Source: Escherichia coli
Lineage (GTDB): Bacteria; Pseudomonadota; Gammaproteobacteria; Enterobacterales; Enterobacteriaceae
Length of the DNA: 64,000 nucleotides
Strand: one strand, 5' to 3'
Assembly (NCBI RefSeq): GCF_036507355.1
Contig: NZ_AP027877.1
The position numbers were made by a program, and so were the translations under genes. A model generated the notes under the pieces. It saw only the letters and a list, made by a program, of their open reading frames with translations, had not been told where the DNA came from and ran no database searches. How positions within the stretch are numbered: the first letter of the stretch is position 1; every line of letters begins with the position of its first letter. This document shows, in pieces, positions 4,944-49,742 of the stretch.

Positions 4944-6614
4944 ATGGATAATGCAGAACTCGCCATTGGTATCGATCTCGGTACTACCAATAGTTTAATT
5001 GCCGTCTGGAAAGACGGTGCCGCGCAATTAATTCCAAATAAGTTCGGTGAATATTTAACACCATCCATAATTAGCATGGATGAAAATAATCATATTTTAG
5101 TCGGAAAACCGGCTGTATCACGGCGTACTTCGCATCCGGATAAAACGGCAGCGTTATTTAAACGTGCAATGGGCAGTAATACCAACTGGCGGTTAGGCAG
5201 CGACACATTTAACGCGCCAGAACTGTCCTCTTTGGTATTACGCTCATTAAAAGAAGATGCCGAAGAATTTCTGCAACGTCCGATTAAAGATGTGGTGATC
5301 TCTGTTCCGGCTTATTTCAGCGATGAACAACGCAAGCATACCCGTTTAGCAGCGGAGTTAGCCGGTTTAAATGCAGTTCGCCTGATTAATGAGCCAACGG
5401 CAGCTGCGATGGCGTATGGCCTACATACCCAACAAAATACCCGTTCGCTGGTGTTTGATCTCGGTGGCGGCACGTTTGACGTTACGGTGCTTGAGTACGC
5501 CACGCCGGTGATTGAAGTTCACGCCTCCGCTGGCGACAACTTCCTCGGTGGCGAAGATTTTACCCATATGCTGGTCGATGAGGTTTTAAAACGCGCGGAT
5601 GTCGCCAGGACCACGCTTAACGAGAGTGAACTGGCAGCCTTGTATGCCTGTGTGGAAGCGGCAAAATGTAGCAATCAATCGCTAATGCACATTCGCTGGC
5701 AGTACCAGGATGAAACGCGGGAATGCGAATTTTACGAGAACGAACTGGAAGATTTGTGGTTGCCGCTGCTCAATCGCTTGCGAGTGCCGATTGAACAGGC
5801 GTTGCGCGATGCGCGTCTGAAGCCGAGTCAAATCGACAGTCTGGTGCTGGTTGGCGGCGCGTCACAAATGCCGCTGGTGCAGCGAATCGCCGTGCGTCTG
5901 TTTGGCAAATTACCGTATCAAAGTTACGATCCGAGCACCATTGTCGCGCTGGGCGCAGCAATCCAGGCAGCCTGCCGCTTACGCAGTGAAGATATTGAAG
6001 AAGTGATCCTCACTGATATTTGCCCTTACTCGTTGGGCGTTGAGGTTAACCGTCAGGGCGTTTCCGGCATTTTCTCGCCGATTATTGAACGAAACACCAC
6101 TGTGCCCGTGTCGCGTGTAGAAACTTATTCAACCATGCACCCGGAACAGGATTCAATTACGGTTAACGTCTATCAGGGAGAAAACCACAAAGTTAAAAAC
6201 AACATTCTGGTGGAATCCTTCGATGTGCCGTTGAAGAAAACCGGGGCTTATCAGTCGATTGATATTCGCTTTAGTTATGATATCAACGGGTTGCTTGAAG
6301 TTGACGTGCTTCTGGAAGACGGCAGCGTTAAGTCCAGAGTGATTAACCACAGCCCGGTAACATTGAGCGCGCAGCAGATTGAAGAGAGTCGGACGCGGTT
6401 ATCCGCATTGAAAATTTATCCGCGCGATATGCTCATCAACCGCACCTTTAAGGCCAAACTGGAAGAGTTGTGGGCGCGGGCGCTGGGTGACGAGCGAGAA
6501 GAGATTGGCCGGGTGATCACCGATTTTGATTCGGCGTTGCAGTCAAACGATATGGCCCGCGTCGATGAGGTCAGGCGGCGGGCGAGCGATTATTTAGCCA
6601 TTGAGATCCCATAA
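4944..6614 (+). CDS. hscC: Hsp70-family chaperone HscC (Hsc62)
   Basis: 556 aa; Hsp70 motifs IDLGTTNS and DLGGGTFD; AT-rich 5' end. Confidence 0.92.
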   Translation: MDNAELAIGIDLGTTNSLIAVWKDGAAQLIPNKFGEYLTPSIISMDENNHILVGKPAVSRRTSHPDKTAALFKRAMGSNTNWRLGSDTFNAPELSSLVLRSLKEDAEEFLQRPIKDVVISVPAYFSDEQRKHTRLAAELAGLNAVRLINEPTAAAMAYGLHTQQNTRSLVFDLGGGTFDVTVLEYATPVIEVHASAGDNFLGGEDFTHMLVDEVLKRADVARTTLNESELAALYACVEAAKCSNQSLMHIRWQYQDETRECEFYENELEDLWLPLLNRLRVPIEQALRDARLKPSQIDSLVLVGGASQMPLVQRIAVRLFGKLPYQSYDPSTIVALGAAIQAACRLRSEDIEEVILTDICPYSLGVEVNRQGVSGIFSPIIERNTTVPVSRVETYSTMHPEQDSITVNVYQGENHKVKNNILVESFDVPLKKTGAYQSIDIRFSYDINGLLEVDVLLEDGSVKSRVINHSPVTLSAQQIEESRTRLSALKIYPRDMLINRTFKAKLEELWARALGDEREEIGRVITDFDSALQSNDMARVDEVRRRASDYLAIEIP

Positions 6615-6620
6615 ACACGG

Positions 6621-6660
6621 CTGCCGGATGCGGCGTAAACGCTGCATCTGGCATCGGCGC
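6621..6660. repeat. REP-like palindromic element between convergent hscC and djlC
   Basis: gccggatgcggcgtaaacgc...ctggcatcggcgc resembles the REP consensus core. Confidence 0.45.
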
Positions 6661-6673
6661 AAAAAACACATCG

Positions 6674-8125
6674 TCAACTAAACAACATCGCGATTTTGCC
6701 GAGAGCATAACCTATCACCAGCACCGTTAAGCTGATTTTGATAATGCTGGTAATGCTCTGTGGTTTTTCATCCTCATCATTTTTTTCTTCATGGTTTTCA
6801 GGTGTTGGCTCATCGACATCTTCATCCTCCGGCTCGAGTTTCACTTTCGTCAACAGCATCCGGGTGATAATGGCCTCTAATGGATGAGCATCTCCACCTT
6901 CCAGCCTTGTATTAAGACGGGCCAGCATCTCTTGTTTCGGAAACGCTTCAAGTACTACCTGTTCCGCTACCCGATACAAATCCAGTAACGGTGAATCTTG
7001 CTCTGTCTCGCTACCGACCCTCGATTTCCACCACGCCCATGCTTTGCGTTTGAAGAATAACGACTCAATAAACGATTGACCTAACGGCGATAGTTTTCCG
7101 CTATGTAAAATTTCCGCCCATAACAGACGCGTCCGGGCGCTCTCACCAGGAACATATTTCAACGGTTTACCTTGCGCATCTACCATGCTCCGTGCTTCGA
7201 TAACCATCACTAATAACGCGAAATAATCCGGGCAATGTTGTGCGCTCCACTGCAACAACAAATTATCGGCTTGTGTAGATGGGTAACTTCCCCAGTACGC
7301 GCAGAGATCGGCAAGCAGGCTTTCCCCCTCGCCGCAGTACAAACGTTGTGCACACTGGTAATACCGGGCATCTTCGCTTTCTGGTTCTTCCGTTTGCCAC
7401 TGTTGGGCAACAGGAATGAGTTCCGCCATACCTGTTTGCACCGAGCTGTACCAGCGCAACAGTTTGCGATGCAACTTCGCATCATCAGGAATTAACCACG
7501 GACCTGCCAACGCCAAAAACGCAGTGACATAGTCAGGATGGTAACGACAGCAACGTTCCAGCGCGAAGTAATACTCAACAGTCTGGTTCTGCAACGCAAT
7601 GGGATATTCCAGAAGGCTAAGGAAATCGAAACAATCACCAGCCTGAATGGCCTCAAGAAAAGCCTCCCTTTCTTCCTCATCCATTCCTACGCTGTCATTA
7701 AACGAATGCCAGTTCAAACGCTCTGCCAGCAAAGAAGCACAATTTAATGAAAGATATCGCGCTTCTATAGCGATTGCACACAGCGGCCAGCGTAATTGAT
7801 CGACATCCTCCATGTTCCAGGTATTTAATTGCTGAATAAATTTCTGCCAGGCGGAAGGCTGAAAACGATCACTTTCTGAATCCAGTAATGTCCTGAATGC
7901 ACGAAGTATTTCATGTTCAGCGGCGGCATCTTTTTCTTCATCATCTGCTTCCTCGACAGGATTTACCGCCAGTCGCAGCGCCTCTTCATAGGCCTGGCGT
8001 AATGCTTTAAACCCCTGCGGATCGGTTTCGGGATGACATAACGGTAAGCGAGCAAAATAAGCCTGGCGGATAATGTCTATTTGCGTCGTGCTTTCAATTT
8101 CGAGGATTTGCCAACATGTTTTCAT
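6674..8125 (-). CDS. djlC: J-domain co-chaperone of HscC with C-terminal membrane anchor
   Basis: 483 aa; N-terminal J-like region with [10 protein letters not shown]-terminal hydrophobic tail [18 protein letters not shown]; start overlaps ybeU stop by 4 bp. Confidence 0.88.
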
Positions 8126-8829
8126 AGGTCGCTCACATCCTTAAGCGTTACCGGGCATTCAGGCTGGACAGTTAATGGTTGCCAGGGAAGCGTGGCATAG
8201 AAACGATCGCTTCCCGCTGCTAGCTCTTCGAACATATGACTCCTGGCGCTATCGTATTTGTACAGGGTTAGCGCCTCGCGTAGCGAAGTGTTGTCTTCGC
8301 ACTGAGAAGATTGCCAGTAGAGACGCCCTAGTGAATAGGCAGAAAAATAGTGCATCCAGCTGTGATAGTAATGGTGAGCTCGTACATAGACGCGCGATTG
8401 CAGCCATAAACTCTCGTCTTCCGTCAGCCACTTGTTGAGCACACCAACCCGTGATAAAAAACCCATCCGCACATAATCCCAGGCTTTGATTCCCCCTTCC
8501 CCACAACACATAGCGGTTTGGGCAACGAACTGGGTATAAATCAACCCTCTCTCCGAGCCACCAGCAATTAATGCTTTCCACTCTTCAGGGGAAGAGCGAT
8601 GCCATGTCAGATATAAGCCAGCTAAATCATTGGCATGACCATCATCAGTCATCTGATAAATAGTCTGAATTAAATCATCACGATTATTTATTCCCCAGGA
8701 TGATGAGAGATCGAATTCTTTTATCCCGGTATACATTTTTGGCGAGTCATGCGCGGGTTTGCAACCCTGATTAAGTATTTCCATGGGCGCAGAAAGCGCA
8801 AAAAGAAGATATTGTTCTTCCTTATTCAT
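8122..8829 (-). CDS. ybeU: DUF1266-like protein, function unknown
   Basis: 235 aa; paralogue of ybeR with shared motif [20 protein letters not shown]. Confidence 0.85.
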
Positions 8830-8930
8830 TTGTTAATAATCCCTTAAGTGCATTAACTGACTACTTTTTTATTATTGATGAGTATAAACTTGACGCTTTC
8901 AAAATAAAAAGAAAATCGAAACATTCACAC

Positions 8931-9485
8931 ATGAATAAAAAATTAATGTATATATTCGCAATTTTTATAGTTGCAGCAATTACCTGTATTAGCCAACCCA
9001 AGAAAACGACGTTGCGTGATAAAGCCATGGTGAATTATGCCTTTGATTATTTAAGCTCACCGGGCAGTCTTCCATTCACCACGGCAGCCACGGAGCTTTC
9101 CGCGATTCATGGTCACTCAACGTCGCAATATCGCCTTGGAGAATTTTATCTTCATGGTAGCGACGGTAAACCACTGGATTATACACAGGCGAGATACTGG
9201 TATGAGCAATCAGCGGAACAGGAAAATCCACGCGCGCAAAGTAAACTGGGGTGGATCTACCTCAAAGGTCTGGGGGTCAAACCCGACACCCGTAAAGCAA
9301 TTCTCTGGTATAAGGAAGCAGCTGAACAAGGGTATGCTCATGCTCAATATACTTTAGGTTTGATCTACAGAAATGGCTCAGGTATTAATGTTAACCATTA
9401 TGAATCTCAAAAATGGTTAAAACTGGCCGCCAAACAACATTACAAAAATGCGGAAAGATTACTTGCCGGGCTTCCCGCACATTAA
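8931..9485 (+). CDS. ybeT: Sel1-repeat (TPR-like) protein with N-terminal hydrophobic segment
   Basis: 184 aa; N-terminal [21 protein letters not shown]; Sel1-like repeats (AQ..LG..Y..G.GV); AT-rich coding sequence. Confidence 0.85.
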
Positions 9486-9494
9486 CGTCGACTG

Positions 9495-10922
9495 TCACCC
9501 GAACAGATGGAGTATTTTCCCTATCAAACCAGCAAAGATAAAAATATAGAAAATAATTTTAATGATGCCCAGACAGCCTGGCCCACCATCGTCAACGGGC
9601 ATTGGCTGCGGTTGCGGCTCCGGTTCAACAGTTTGCTTCTCGGTAAAATTCGCCGCCTGAATTAATAATCGACGAATAATTAATGCTTCCAGTGGACAAC
9701 GATTTTCTGCATCAAGACGGCTTACGATCGGCATTAATGATTCTTCTGTTGGTTGGCTGGCCTGCACTAATTGTTTGGCAACTAAATATAATGGCCATAA
9801 GGGATGTTCTGTATCACGCGTGAGTGAGATCCGCGGCTTACGTCCTTTGTGCAAAACCATCTCGACCAGTGAACGCCCCAGAGCAGAGAGTTTTTCATCG
9901 CTGAGTATTTCGTATAAATGAAAACGCGTACGGGCGCTGTCGCCGGGGATATAAAGTAGCGGTTTTCCCTGATCGTTAACCAGTTCACGAGCTTCAATCA
10001 TCATCACCACTAACGGGTAATAATCGACCCGATGCTGACGGCACCATTGCAATATTAAAGCATCCGCCTGGGTGGAGGGATACTCGCGCCAGTAGTCACA
10101 AAGTTCTGCCAGCAAGCTTTCGCCTTCTCCACAATAGACGCGTTGTGCGTATTCATAATAACGCGCATCTTCATTATCAGGTTCAGCTTCCCGCCACGAC
10201 CGGGCGTAATCCAGGAGTTCGGGAATTCCCAGGCGACCTGCGCTATACCAGCGGAGTAAATTTCTGTGCAGTTTTGCATCATCGGGGATAATCACTGCGC
10301 GATGTTGCGCTAAATACAATGTCAGCCATTCTGGATGCGATGACCAAATCCGAGCGAACATTTGGTAAAAATCGATGGTGTCATTTTGCACGGCAACGGG
10401 CAGATGCAGGATGGTCTGGAAGTTAAAAACATTCCCCTTCGCAATGGCATATAAAAAGGATTCCAGTTCTTCTTCGTCTATTTCCCCGACGTTTTCTTCC
10501 TGCAACCACCGCAATCTTTCTGCTAATAACACCACGCACTCGAAGGATAAATGGGCAGTGTTCATGGCTATTGTGCACAGCGACCAGCGTAATTCATCAA
10601 TCTCTTCCATCGAGCAATAATTTAATTGCTGAATGAATCGCTGCCAGGCGGAGGGCAGAAAACGTTCGCTATCAGAGGCAAGTAACGCACGAAAGGCGAG
10701 CAGAATTTCATGTTCTGCTACCTCATATTCTTCTGGTTGCCAAACAGATTTAGCAGGCGACTGCGCAATCCGTAGCGCCTCCTCATACGCCTGACGAAGT
10801 TGTTTAAAACCCTGCGGATCGGTTTCTGGATGAAAGGACGGTAACAGCGCCAGATAAGCGCGGCGGATAATATCGACGTCAGTCGTTTCCTCTATGTTGA
10901 GGATCTTCCAGCAATTTTTCAT
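9495..10922 (-). CDS. djlB: J-domain protein with C-terminal membrane anchor, paralogue of djlC
   Basis: 475 aa; N-terminus [23 protein letters not shown]...[10 protein letters not shown]-terminal hydrophobic tail; start overlaps ybeR stop by 4 bp. Confidence 0.88.
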
Positions 10923-11626
10923 AGGTCGCTCATATCCTTAAGCGTTTCCGGGCATGTGGGGTAGTCAGCCAGTGGTTGCCAGGGTAAGGTCGCGTAATAT
11001 GCATCGTCACTGGCAAATAATTGATAAAACATATCATTGCCGGAATCGTCGTATTCTTTACGCGCTAAGAATTCACGTAATAAAGGCAGATTATCATCTT
11101 CGGGAGACTGCCAATATTGCCGACCAAAGGTATAACCGGCAAAGTATTGCCGCCAGTTACTATAATAACGTAGAGCCCGTAGATGAATACGCGACTGGAT
11201 CCATAGACTTTCTTCTTCACTCAACCAGTTATTAAGTACGCCCATTCGACTTAAAAAACCCATCCGGACATAATCCCATGCTTTAATTCCTCCCTCACCA
11301 CAGCATTCGGCTGTGCTGGCGACAAATTGCGCATAAGCCTGACCTTGCTCATTTAATTCAGCAAGATAGTCACGCCATTCACATGGAGAATAACGAAACC
11401 AGCGGTGATAAAACCCTGCCAACCGAGCGGCATGACCGTTATCGATCATTCGGTGAATTGTGCGCAGCAGGTCATCACGGTCATCAATTCCCCAGGAGGA
11501 AGAAAGGTCAAAAAAGCATGTACCTAAATACATTTTGGGGGATGAATGCGAAGGTAAACAGCATTCATTGCGTATTTCCATCGGAGTGGAAAGTGCAAAC
11601 AATATTTTTTGCGACTCCATGTCCAT
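10919..11626 (-). CDS. ybeR: DUF1266-like protein, function unknown, paralogue of ybeU
   Basis: 235 aa; same [20 protein letters not shown] motif as ybeU. Confidence 0.85.
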
Positions 11627-11783
11627 ATAATTTATCCTTAAACATTCATTTAATGAATGTAAACTACATTAGGAGGCTCATTTATTTATACTTTTCTGAC
11701 ACAACATAATACGCATAAAATAAGACTTACGCAAAAACGGAACACATAAAAATATAATATGTTTTATCTGCAACCATAAGGAA

Positions 11784-12767
11784 ATGATAATGATTTTTAC
11801 GTCAAGTTGCTGCGATAATTTGTCAATAGATGAGATTATCGAACGTGCTGAACAAGGCGATAGTGAGGCTCAATATATTGTTGGGTTTTATTATAATCGC
11901 GATAGCGCAATTGACTCTCCGGACGACGAAAAGGCCTTTTACTGGCTGAAGCTGGCCGCTGAGCAAGGTCATTGTGAAGCACAGTATTCCTTAGGGCAAA
12001 AGTATACCGAGGATAAAAGCCGTCATAAAGATAATGAGCAAGCCATCTTCTGGCTGAAAAAAGCTGCCCTACAAGGCCATACTTTCGCTTCCAACGCCCT
12101 TGGCTGGATACTGGATCGTGGAGAAGACCCCAACTATAAAGAAGCGGTTGCCTGGTATCAGATAGCCGCGGAGAGCGGAATGTCTTATGCGCAAAATAAT
12201 CTTGGGTGGATGTACAGAAATGGCAACGGAGTCGCACAAGACTATACGCTGGCATTTTTCTGGTACAAACAAGCTGCATTACAAGGCCATAGTGACGCGC
12301 AAAACAATCTGGCCGATCTTTATGAAGACGGAAAAGGCGTTGCTCAAAACGAGACACTCGCCGCATTCTGGTATTTGAAAAGCGCACAGCAGGGTAATCG
12401 GCATGCTCAGTTTCAAATTGCATGGGATTATAACGCTGGCGAAGGGGTGGACCAGGACTATAAGCAAGCGATGTACTGGTATCTGAAGGCTGCCGCTCAG
12501 GGGAGCGTCGGCGCTTACGTCAACATCGGTTATATGTATAAACACGGACAAGGCGTTGAGAAAGATTATCAGGCTGCCTTTGAATGGTTTACGAAAGCCG
12601 CTGAATGCAATGACGCCACTGCCTGGTATAACCTGGCCATTATGTATCACTACGGAGAAGGAAGACCTGTCGATCTCCGACAGGCTCTCGACCTGTATCG
12701 TAAAGTTCAGTCATCCGGAACCAGAGATGTCAGTCAGGAAATTCGTGAGACTGAAGATTTACTGTAG
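11784..12767 (+). CDS. ybeQ: Sel1-repeat (TPR-like) protein
   Basis: 327 aa; at least seven Sel1-like repeats (AQ..LG..Y..G.GV..D...A..W); Cys-rich N-terminus. Confidence 0.85.
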   Translation: MIMIFTSSCCDNLSIDEIIERAEQGDSEAQYIVGFYYNRDSAIDSPDDEKAFYWLKLAAEQGHCEAQYSLGQKYTEDKSRHKDNEQAIFWLKKAALQGHTFASNALGWILDRGEDPNYKEAVAWYQIAAESGMSYAQNNLGWMYRNGNGVAQDYTLAFFWYKQAALQGHSDAQNNLADLYEDGKGVAQNETLAAFWYLKSAQQGNRHAQFQIAWDYNAGEGVDQDYKQAMYWYLKAAAQGSVGAYVNIGYMYKHGQGVEKDYQAAFEWFTKAAECNDATAWYNLAIMYHYGEGRPVDLRQALDLYRKVQSSGTRDVSQEIRETEDLL

Positions 12768-30786: not shown

Positions 30787-30792
30787 AGACCA

Positions 30793-30821
30793 AAAAAAAC
30801 CCGCTGATTAAGCGGGTTTTG
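30793..30821. terminator. bidirectional rho-independent terminator between convergent crcB and cspE
   Basis: aaaaaaaacccgctgattaagcgggttttg. Confidence 0.75.
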
Positions 30822-30839
30822 AATTCTTGCTGACGTATC

Positions 30840-31049
30840 TTACAGAGCGATTACGTTTGCAGCAGAAGGGCCTTTGGCACCGTTAGTGATTTCGAACTCT
30901 ACGCGCTGACCTTCAGCAAGAGTTTTAAAACCATTAGTCTGGATTGCAGAGAAGTGTACGAACACGTCTTTGCTGCCGTCTTCCGGAGTAATGAAACCGA
31001 ATCCTTTGGACTCATTAAACCACTTAACGTTACCTTTAATCTTAGACAT
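30840..31049 (-). CDS. cspE: cold-shock-domain protein CspE
   Basis: ORF 30840..31133 trimmed to [20 protein letters not shown] (RNP1 motif); 69 aa. Confidence 0.92.
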
Positions 31050-31223
31050 CAAAATTACCTTTACATGAAAAATAGACACAAATGCTGTGTCGGTTACCAG
31101 TACACCAATTGTGGTACGCTTTGTCCAGTGCAACTTTACTAAAAAGTGATAAAAGTCGCGTTATTTTTGATGTTAATTATTTTACTCATTGATTTTAAAG
31201 AATTTACTAAAACTTCATTTGTC

Positions 31224-31714
31224 TCAAAACTGAAAGCGCATCCAGGCAAAGTACACATTACCATTGTTGTAGGTACCCGGAATATAGGTCATCTGAAAAG
31301 TCACTGGACCATAACCCACGGAGGCCAATGGCAGTAGAACCGGGAGAGGGATGTTATTCCAGTTATCACGTGCCGTTACGCCAGCGGTGAATCCCAGACC
31401 TAAATGAAAAGTTTCATCCGCCAGCGGTCGCCAGGTACTTTCCCATCCGTATCCGGCAATCGGTTCCCATTTGTTCCACGAGTCCTTAAATGCCATGGCA
31501 TACAGGCCATGCCAGTTTCCTTTTTCATCCCAACGCGACAGGCCAAAACCGCCACCCCACGGTCGCTCGTTATAGCGATCGGTTTTTTCTTTGTCGTAAG
31601 CGAAACGTGCATGCCAGGTGATGGCAGGAATATATAAATCATAATGTTCAGGCTGTTGCCAGGTTTGTGCAATATTTTCTCTAAACGTTGTCATCCACTC
31701 ATCTGCGTTAGCAA
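31224..31714 (-). pseudogene. pagP: lipid A palmitoyltransferase PagP, 5'-truncated: signal-peptide codons and promoter replaced by IS1
   Basis: Reading frame continues upstream of the ORF-track Met as ...[15 protein letters not shown] and runs straight into the IS1 terminus at 31715; first ~24 codons absent. Confidence 0.85.
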
Positions 31715-44235: not shown

Positions 44236-44383
44236 TCATCTGATTTACAAAACACGCTAATTTGTCTTCCATAAACCAAGGCGATTAAGATTTATACATA
44301 ATGCGCTGCATTGAGGAATTCCCTGAATGTGACGCAAATCACTTCAAAGAGTGAGCAACAGTCAGTATCATCATGTGAGTTAA

Positions 44384-44417
44384 ACCCTCGCCGCCTGACG
44401 GTGAGGGTTTTCTTTTG
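44384..44417 (+). terminator. hairpin in rna-rnk intergenic region
   Basis: aaccctcgccgcctgacggtgagggttttcttttg. Confidence 0.4.
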
Positions 44418-44464
44418 GGTATGTTTATCTGCGACACTCGCAGTACCGACGACATGGAGTAAAA

Positions 44465-49371: not shown

Positions 49372-49742
49372 CTATACTTCCTCCGTGTTTTCGATGAGAT
49401 GTAAGGTAACCAATTTTTGCCGATTCGGCTAATGCGTTTCCATTATCAAATCGATAAGTTTTACCTTACAACCTTCGTAAGACAACTTTGTGAACTTTGC
49501 ACCGCCAGCGGCGATAAAAAGTAAAATGGCCCCCTTTCCAGGTGACCGTGTAATCTGAACTACCCTTTGGTATCTTCAGCGCCTGCCTGCAGGCAGAGGT
49601 GTTGCCCTTACAAATGCAACAACGACATGGATTACAACACCCTCATAAACAAAGGGCAATCACCTGATCTAAGCTCTTACCTATGACAGTGATAGGTTAT
49701 GCCTTTTACTCGACTTTTGCACTGACTGAAAAGGACAAATTA

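Follow-up and report, generated by a model that had tools for sequence, protein, structure and literature searches.

HscC is one of only three Hsp70 proteins of Escherichia coli, and more than 20 years after its biochemical description it has been assigned neither a client nor a role. Together with its J-proteins it constitutes the "third Hsp70 system" of E. coli, composed of HscC (Hsc62) and DjlC/DjlB (Hsc56, YbeV/YbeS). The ATPase of HscC is stimulated by DjlC, an effect that DnaJ, CbpA and HscB do not have (PMC8215388, citing Kluck 2002), its peptide binding depends mainly on positive charge (PMC8215388), and DjlC is a tail-anchored protein inserted in the inner membrane (PMC8215388, PMC6794478). 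Deletion of hscC, or of djlB and djlC together, confers Cd2+ sensitivity, deletion of hscC also confers UV sensitivity, and all components of the system lie under the detection limit in exponential phase (PMC8215388). Reviews from 2021 and 2026 describe an Hsp70/J-protein pair without a defined substrate and name only DjlB/C as cochaperones of HscC (PMC8215388, PMC13254874). The locus analyzed here, situated in a 64,000-nucleotide stretch of the E. coli contig NZ_AP027877.1 (the window, taken at its full length), is this very system, with the same exclusive J-protein/Hsp70 pairing, HPE motif, tail-anchored DjlC and Cd2+/UV sensitivity on deletion (PMC8215388, PMC13254874). It departs from the published picture in two respects: where the literature consulted has a two-component pair without a known client, a small protein of the DUF1266 family (YbeU and YbeR in E. 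coli) is co-conserved with hscC and coupled to the J-protein; and the common J-protein has about 890 residues and ends in a DUF805 domain, the E. coli form being shortened and duplicated.

Among other chaperone systems, HscA-HscB-IscU is the closest mechanistic precedent. In both cases a specialized Hsp70 is served by an exclusive J-protein, a small partner is encoded alongside, and the non-J domain of the J-protein is suited to hold that partner; at the present locus Hsp70, J-protein and partner are likewise co-encoded and co-conserved, with hscC adjacent in all loci with enough sequence. The two systems differ in that DUF1266 has no sequence or fold relation to IscU and no Fe-S context, that the Djl proteins are membrane-anchored and TPR (tetratricopeptide repeat)-like, unlike HscB, and that the client status of DUF1266 is a proposal of this analysis. 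DjlA, another bacterial class C J-protein, also recruits an Hsp70 to the inner membrane; it has an N-terminal transmembrane (TM) helix, a C-terminal HPD J-domain and DnaK as partner, whereas in the Djl proteins discussed here the topology is reversed, the motif is HPE, the specificity is for HscC and the partner is DUF1266.

To define the conserved unit, two scans were made: a genome scan over one genome per GTDB species with an 11-sequence DUF1266 alignment, which returned 76 loci whose open reading frames (ORFs) were called and then searched with the seven window proteins, and a metagenome scan with a J-protein alignment, which returned at least 80 loci. Both scans are pattern-based, and the Pseudomonas loci are phylogenetically redundant. 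In every DUF1266-found locus with enough sequence (about 70), a DUF1266 gene is followed by an overlapping djl gene and then by hscC; this triad occurs in Pseudomonas (more than 50 loci), Erwinia, Rahnella, Pragia, Yersinia nurmii, Pectobacterium, Brenneria, Marinobacter, Klebsiella spallanzanii and Escherichia, and the metagenome J-protein loci repeat the pattern. Clustering of all ORFs identified these three families as the only ones recurring across loci, the flanks being genus-specific and of housekeeping type (e.g. diguanylate cyclase, nitrate reductase, RlmJ, methionine aminopeptidase). In both scans taken together, the DUF1266 gene lies directly upstream and on the same strand in 150 of the 151 Djl genes, and the two overlap by 4 nt in 142 of these 150 and by 1 nt in 6. 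In 129 of 130 loci hscC and djl converge, and the triad Hsp70 genes score 450-1220 bits against E. coli HscC; the 3' ends of hscC and djl overlap by 4-7 nt in about 55 long-form loci, mostly of Pseudomonas (e.g. L029:13380-13383), compared with a 59-bp gap in E. coli. The triad persists where DUF1266 identity has fallen to 22-25% (L082, L085). In a second, co-directional order, met in more distant bacteria, an Hsp70 gene is followed by a J-protein gene (717-858 aa, with TPR repeats and the Pfam domain DjlB_C_2nd) and then by DUF1266 (L086, L169, L171), here of a subfamily of about 220 aa. Co-inheritance of the three genes as one unit holds across unrelated genomic surroundings and both gene orders, and the DUF1266 and J-protein genes are coupled through a conserved 4-nt overlap.

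A preliminary description of the window had named co-conservation of the DUF1266, J-protein and Sel1-repeat genes with hscC as an observation on which its proposal of a seven-gene system stood or fell. For DUF1266, J-protein and hscC this expectation held; for the Sel1 genes it broke down outside Escherichia and Salmonella. The conserved unit is the triad, and the Sel1 genes are an Escherichia/Salmonella feature. Some of the loci merit separate mention. The DUF1266 protein of L086 has 222 aa, a length equal to that of a Clostridium carboxidivorans DUF1266 protein in the AlphaFold database (AFDB), and the organism is therefore probably a Clostridium. L088, a short contig, carries two tandem DUF1266 genes. 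At a contig end of Paenibacillus sp. USDA918EY (L008), residues 81-209 of YbeU are matched at 98% identity, most likely through E. coli contamination or a chimeric contig.

In the window, the run hscC-djlC-ybeU-ybeT-djlB-ybeR-ybeQ is bounded by rihA and ybeL and corresponds to the E. coli region gltJKL-rihA-[hscC djlC ybeU ybeT djlB ybeR ybeQ]-ybeL-leuS. Its features are as follows.

4944..6614, plus strand: hscC, specialized Hsp70, ORF of 556 aa
6615..6673, no strand: gap of 59 bp between the 3' ends of the convergent genes hscC and djlC
6674..8125, minus strand: djlC, J-protein, 483 aa
7961-8125, minus strand: J-domain of DjlC with HPE motif, residues 1-55
6836-7912, minus strand: TPR-like solenoid of DjlC, residues 72-430
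6680-6757, minus strand: tail-anchor helix of DjlC, residues 457-482
8122..8829, minus strand: ybeU, DUF1266 protein, 235 aa
8122-8125, minus strand: overlap of ybeU stop and djlC start, 4 nt
8830..8930, no strand: divergent intergenic region of ybeU and ybeT, AT-rich, GC 0.27
8931..9485, plus strand: ybeT, Sel1-repeat protein, 184 aa, hydrophobic N-terminus; lineage-specific, outside the core
9495..10922, minus strand: djlB, paralogous J-protein, 475 aa
10919..11626, minus strand: ybeR, paralogous DUF1266 protein, 235 aa
10919-10922, minus strand: overlap of ybeR and djlB, 4 nt
11627..11783, no strand: divergent intergenic region of ybeR and ybeQ, AT-rich, GC 0.26
11784..12767, plus strand: ybeQ, Sel1-repeat protein, 327 aa, 8 repeats, without signal sequence

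All seven ORFs of the preliminary description are present, the 4-bp overlaps it claimed are real (8122-8125 and 10919-10922), and the N-terminal J-domain and C-terminal hydrophobic tail it ascribed to DjlC and DjlB are seen; hscC, which it described as followed by the two units, is convergent to djlC and not co-directional with them. Its statement that the paralogous pairs align over their full length is borne out for YbeU/YbeR and DjlC/DjlB and does not extend to YbeT/YbeQ, which match only repeat to repeat. The AT-rich composition it noted centers on the two divergent intergenic regions (GC 0.26-0.27), the module as a whole being only modestly low in GC (guanine plus cytosine; 0.469, against 0.514 for the remaining window). 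In the 59-bp gap between hscC and djlC no terminator-like site was found, in a promoter/terminator scan that gave fewer sites than shuffled controls.

HscC has the Hsp70 domains for nucleotide and substrate binding and lies outside the DnaK and HscA families, since it scores 379-386 bits against the NCBIfam models of both, far under their cut-offs of 620-822. No conserved TPR-ligand motif of the EEVD type was found in HscC C-termini.

In the Djl proteins an HPE J-domain is always joined to a TPR-type solenoid and a membrane anchor. DjlC and DjlB are 53% identical over 437 residues and 64% identical in the J-domain; on the basis of the latter value, stimulation of the HscC ATPase by DjlB may be assumed. 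The J-domain fold, with its helix II/III hairpin, is present, and the canonical HPD tripeptide is absent: all Djl N-termini inspected carry HPE within HPE[TSRN][DN]Px-GF (HPETDPQGF in both DjlC and DjlB), except for HPPE in Marinobacter and YPE in one Escherichia strain. HPE is the sole tolerated variant of HPD (PMC13254874) and is carried by about 1% of J-domains (PMC10410713). The YPE substitution was observed in the DjlC orthologue of Escherichia sp. E1V33 (L006:10705-10900), where it would be expected to disable the J-domain. In the AlphaFold2 model of DjlC (predicted local distance difference test score, pLDDT, 88), an acidic disordered linker (residues 56-70) separates the J-domain from the solenoid, whose best fold matches are the TPR domains of PEX5 and Sti1; sequence similarity to TPR families is weak or absent. 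A second disordered linker precedes a predicted terminal TM helix (residues 457-482 of 483), and this single C-terminal TM helix without an N-terminal signal makes DjlC a tail-anchored inner-membrane protein; DjlB likewise ends in a hydrophobic tail. DNAJC3/p58IPK and DNAJC7 also join a J-domain to a TPR-type solenoid, and PEX5 and Sti1/Hop are TPR receptors for C-terminal peptides; from the TPR J-proteins, the Djl proteins differ by the N-terminal position of the J-domain, the membrane anchor and the weakness of the TPR signal.

Outside Escherichia, Salmonella and Klebsiella the J-protein has about 880-970 aa (usually about 890) and aligns to DjlC over its first 310-370 residues or so. This usual form has, besides the HPE J-domain, a TPR-like solenoid and a DUF805 membrane domain; in the P. 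mendocina protein, DUF805 (PF05656) is polytopic and C-terminal, at residues 756-862 (E 2e-7). The same Pfam domain gave no match in E. coli DjlC, and the short enterobacterial form therefore lacks it. The short tail-anchored Djl is probably a derived truncation, and E. coli appears to have a shortened and duplicated derivative of the long J-TPR-DUF805 form; more might therefore be learned from experiments on the Pseudomonas or Erwinia versions. The membrane association anticipated in the preliminary description is conserved, as a tail anchor in Escherichia and as the polytopic DUF805 domain elsewhere.

YbeU and YbeR align along their entire 235 residues without a gap, at 60% identity. YbeU matches Pfam DUF1266 (PF06889) over model positions 2-175 of 175 (E 9e-45), a family for which a profile search gave 1480 clusters at 50% identity, and its predicted structure is all-alpha, with 13 helices (pLDDT 93; predicted template modeling score, pTM, 0.91). 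The near-invariant polar residues H65, D118, R121, R127 and E139 of YbeU are shared with multidomain DUF1266 proteins. Triad-linked gammaproteobacterial DUF1266 proteins have in addition an acidic C-terminal tail, LPW-x(6-10)-[KR]P-x-[ST]-L-x-E, present in 130 of 140 of them versus 1 of 41 multidomain proteins; within the subfamily of about 220 aa, neither of two tails examined has the motif. This tail could be a TPR ligand, and the combination of a PEX5/Sti1-like solenoid with an acidic DUF1266 tail suggests a peptide-in-groove contact.

Taken together, the reading toward which we lean, with somewhat better than even confidence, is that of a membrane-tethered three-component Hsp70 machine in which DUF1266 is the J-protein-bound client or adaptor. 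HscC would act as the Hsp70 motor and DjlC/DjlB as the targeting subunit, whose HPE J-domain would recruit HscC and trigger its ATPase (the latter published for DjlC), whose TPR-like alpha-solenoid would serve as binding platform, and whose C-terminal anchor would fix the J-protein to the inner membrane. YbeU or YbeR, a presumably cytosolic all-alpha protein with its translation tightly coupled to that of the J-protein, would bind the solenoid in a ratio of about 1:1, possibly by the conserved acidic tail, and the J-domain would draw HscC to the DUF1266-Djl complex at the inner membrane. There, DUF1266 would be either a dedicated client or a client- or ligand-recognition adaptor handed to HscC, with the handing of IscU by HscB to HscA as precedent. 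In Escherichia and Salmonella two DUF1266/J-protein targeting units would share a single HscC, and two diverged units on one HscC suggest two targets or conditions. That the three genes are functionally linked is far more certain than the role given to DUF1266. A small protein without a solved structural relative thereby becomes a concrete candidate for the missing client or adaptor of HscC, a candidacy that rests on adjacency, the conserved 4-nt overlap and co-inheritance in Gammaproteobacteria, along with the second gene order elsewhere.

Several observations weigh against this reading. About 19% of complete E. coli genomes are without the whole island and have a clean alternative allele, and pseudogenes occur in some E. 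coli strains; cells can therefore do without the function. Secreted multidomain proteins that combine signal peptides with Cu_amine_oxidN1, SLH or TPR domains likewise contain DUF1266, so the domain has a function or ligand independent of Hsp70. In one locus (L172), a DjlB_C/TPR protein and DUF1266 are found without an adjacent Hsp70 gene, and two others (L166, L168) encode a distant J-protein with an NPE tripeptide and TPR repeats and no visible DUF1266, L168 with an adjacent Hsp70. Finally, HscC genes without DUF1266 may exist, the loci having been gathered via DUF1266 and J-protein queries.

The alternative alleles in E. coli vary in extent. Among 5426 complete genomes, the 8.7-kb region is covered to at least 80% in 3686 (68%) and djlB-ybeR to at least 80% in 3705, and hscC is present in 4409 (81%). 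The island-free allele, seen in E. coli 7CC, accession NZ_CM137006.1 (L001:11958-12001), has between rihA and ybeL a 44-bp palindrome resembling repetitive extragenic palindromic (REP) elements, GCCGGATG...CATCCGGC, a hairpin unrelated to either island end in the window; whether the island was inserted or deleted cannot be read from this 44-bp junction. SE15 has lost djlB-ybeR and part of ybeQ, and EC6563 has a single unit with a frameshifted djlC, which an ORF scan suggests to be a djlC/djlB hybrid.

Of the alternatives to the three-component machine, the one that survives best, although we consider it unlikely, is the proposal of the preliminary description that all seven genes form one membrane-associated chaperone-based system, each unit working with its divergent Sel1 protein. 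The divergent pairing over short AT-rich regions is indeed present twice in the window, ybeT and ybeU-djlC are both SlyA-induced and H-NS-regulated (PMC5797941), and YbeQ is kept at the same position in Salmonella (332 aa, E 1e-110). TPR repeats are moreover recurrently fused, to DUF1266 in 5-8 of 41 multidomain proteins and to the J-protein where the second gene order is found; next to DUF1266, Rahnella and Yersinia have another secreted repeat protein (685 aa). Against this, a search of about 65 loci beyond Escherichia and Salmonella for homologues of YbeT or YbeQ (E < 1e-5) within 10 kb of the triad found none, Klebsiella has neither gene, with ybeL directly adjoining the DUF1266 gene in Klebsiella spallanzanii, and YbeT is absent from Salmonella, where it is missing between the two units, from Klebsiella and from all loci outside Escherichia. 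The two proteins are not full-length paralogues either: their Sel1 repeats match in several registers at 32-37% identity, YbeQ has eight Pfam Sel1 repeats (PF08238, E 5e-11 to 4e-4), and YbeT, which aligns with the YbeQ repeats, gives partial matches to the Sel1-type NCBIfam families MerG, AlgK, MotX and ExoR. They probably reside in different compartments, because a hydrophobic N-terminus is found in YbeT and not in YbeQ. The genes ybeT and ybeQ are thus lineage-specific neighbors and accessories at most, which would share H-NS/SlyA-controlled divergent promoter regions with the units, and experiments on the HscC system need not include them.

The secreted repeat protein itself was observed in Rahnella (L009:3961-6018) as a signal-peptide protein of 685 aa, on the DUF1266 strand and 25 bp upstream of the DUF1266 gene, with a homologue at the same position in Yersinia nurmii (L024). 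It has weak similarity to a MORN variant and to the LIC20035 adhesin, and may be a lineage-specific fourth gene, a positional analogue of the Sel1 genes.

It is quite unlikely that DUF1266 regulates the HscC cycle, as a nucleotide-exchange factor or inhibitor, instead of serving as client or adaptor. Such a regulator would fit the strict co-conservation of the three genes and the predicted all-alpha fold of YbeU, BAG and HspBP1/Sil1 being nucleotide-exchange factors that are likewise all-alpha. It would also fit the fact that reviews name no HscC cochaperone beyond DjlB/C (PMC8215388, PMC13254874). What disfavors it is that the translational coupling is to the J-protein and not to HscC, which is encoded on the opposite strand in 129 of 130 loci, and that DUF1266 occurs outside the cytoplasm as well, in secreted proteins to which neither Hsp70 nor ATP is available.

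The preliminary description also raised phage defense, and an anti-phage defense or conflict system, in which DUF1266 or the solenoid senses infection, HscC remodels and the DUF805 domain or tail anchor is the effector, appears very unlikely to us. In its favor, complete E. coli genomes differ in the island, which 68% carry in full and about 19% lack, and H-NS silences it; Djl, DUF1266 and Sel1 proteins, at 48-65% identity to their Salmonella counterparts, diverge much faster than HscC and the flanking genes, at 82% and 92%; a phage challenge read out by transposon-directed insertion-site sequencing enriched for ybeT insertions (TraDIS; 10.1101/2025.12.01.691526); and Hsp70-like or DnaJ components belong to some defense systems (PMC11090510, PMC12169576). 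In CoCoNuT CnuD (PMC11090510) and bNACHT25 with DnaJ (PMC12169576), an Hsp70-family ATPase or a J-protein acts beyond general folding, as it would here; these systems differ by their nucleases, NACHT or McrBC modules and defense contexts, none of which is found at this locus. Against it, PADLOC-DB 2.0 gave no match for HscC, DjlC, DjlB, YbeU or YbeR and only marginal PtuA matches for the Sel1 proteins (E 6e-4 to 2e-3; no stretch passes alone). DUF1266 and Djl have no PHROG family, the PHROGs matches being generic Hsp70 and Sel1 only; of 14 DUF1266-pattern matches in viral contigs, none was confirmed as a relative; and tblastn against a phage database matched only two unannotated records. The flanks examined are of housekeeping type and contain no integrases or defense genes, with one IS110-family transposase (L082) as the mobile element seen; the triad is found at more than 50 loci of Pseudomonas, groups of which have flanking gene sets in common; no nuclease, TIR, protease or NADase effector is recognizable; genuine plasmid carriage is limited to Erwinia persicina megaplasmids; and a Keio ybeT mutant has no phage phenotype (10.1101/2025.12.01.691526). 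A related idea, an Hsp70-powered membrane surveillance or conflict module with DUF1266 as a ligand or effector sensor on the solenoid, HscC remodeling the DUF805 domain or tail anchor, and the variable secreted repeat proteins, Sel1 in Escherichia and Salmonella and the 685-aa protein in Rahnella and Yersinia, as lineage-specific periplasmic inputs, would if true be an undescribed kind of chaperone-driven immune or envelope-stress system, and it strikes us as highly improbable.

Some of the records met in these searches are of interest by themselves. The two "phage" records, OR851168.1 (2.6 kb) and OR845923.1 (1.5 kb), contain ybeU/ybeR-like sequence, and E. coli "plasmid" carriage (CP099174.1, NZ_CP141089.1 and others; 0.7-4.9 Mb) was rejected, these records probably being mislabeled chromosomes; the four named records look like chromosomal fragments or mislabeled chromosomes. 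The Erwinia persicina plasmids H45-H48 (130-165 kb) carry DUF1266 and are, by PLSDB prediction, mostly non-mobilizable. An IS110-family transposase lies alongside the triad in L082. In L172 (1-7657), the DjlB_C/TPR-DUF1266 pair directly follows a PAAR-RHS toxin gene and a 129-aa ORF, and in L169 (10-423) a gene for Tae4, a type VI amidase effector, lies about 2.6 kb from the triad Hsp70 gene; this proximity could be coincidence or a link with interbacterial antagonism.

All seven genes are under purifying selection, with ratios of nonsynonymous to synonymous substitution rates (dN/dS) of 0.03-0.14 between E. coli and E. whittamii. In Salmonella the order is ybeL, the YbeQ orthologue, two DUF1266-Djl units, hscC, a 412-aa ORF and rihA. 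Assignment of the units to their E. coli orthologues depends on differences in identity of only 1-8 points, with an ambiguous result for DjlB, and the age of the duplication is therefore only approximate; it is probably at least as old as the Escherichia/Salmonella split. The preliminary description had suggested horizontal acquisition; a recent transfer is not needed, as Escherichia and Salmonella both have the module between rihA and ybeL, and its patchy spread in Enterobacterales allows loss and transfer over longer time scales. The 412-aa ORF between hscC and rihA (Salmonella enterica L080:11951-13189) is absent from the E. coli window and has no Pfam or NCBIfam match. In Escherichia sp. 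MOD1-EC7003 (L004:3648-5986), a third, divergent Djl-like gene, split into 93 and 344 aa, lies between ybeL and ybeQ without DUF1266 upstream and is followed by a 321-aa signal-peptide ORF; it may be a decaying third unit.

Published data on regulation concern mainly H-NS and SlyA. SlyA overproduction induces ybeT 4.1-fold and ybeU-hscD (hscD being djlC) 2.8-fold, and both transcription units are members of the H-NS regulon (PMC5797941); in strain 042 at 25 °C, an hns mutation de-represses a DUF1266 gene 308-fold (PMC7582179); and DjlC is in the Crl regulon, ybeU-djlC being listed as one transcription unit (PMC6469107). Mentions of djlC in the RRS paper were set aside, as they concern a neutral insertion site only. 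The one paper of the searchable literature that names DUF1266 has no mention of hscC, ybeU or ybeR, and searches by gene names gave no discussion of DUF1266 as a component of the HscC system. Neither the genes nor the pairing of HscC with DjlC is new. What seems new, measured against that literature, is that DUF1266 is an obligate partner, that a long J-TPR-DUF805 form and a second gene order exist, and that the Sel1 genes are excluded; gene-neighborhood databases may already display the DUF1266/Djl/hscC adjacency. Elsewhere in the window, no tRNA genes were found, and Rfam identified sroC, a cspA-type thermoregulator, the rnk leader and STnc70 (1494-1656, 30792-31234, 44311-44419 and 49516-49609), four elements that are ordinary for this region of E. 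coli.

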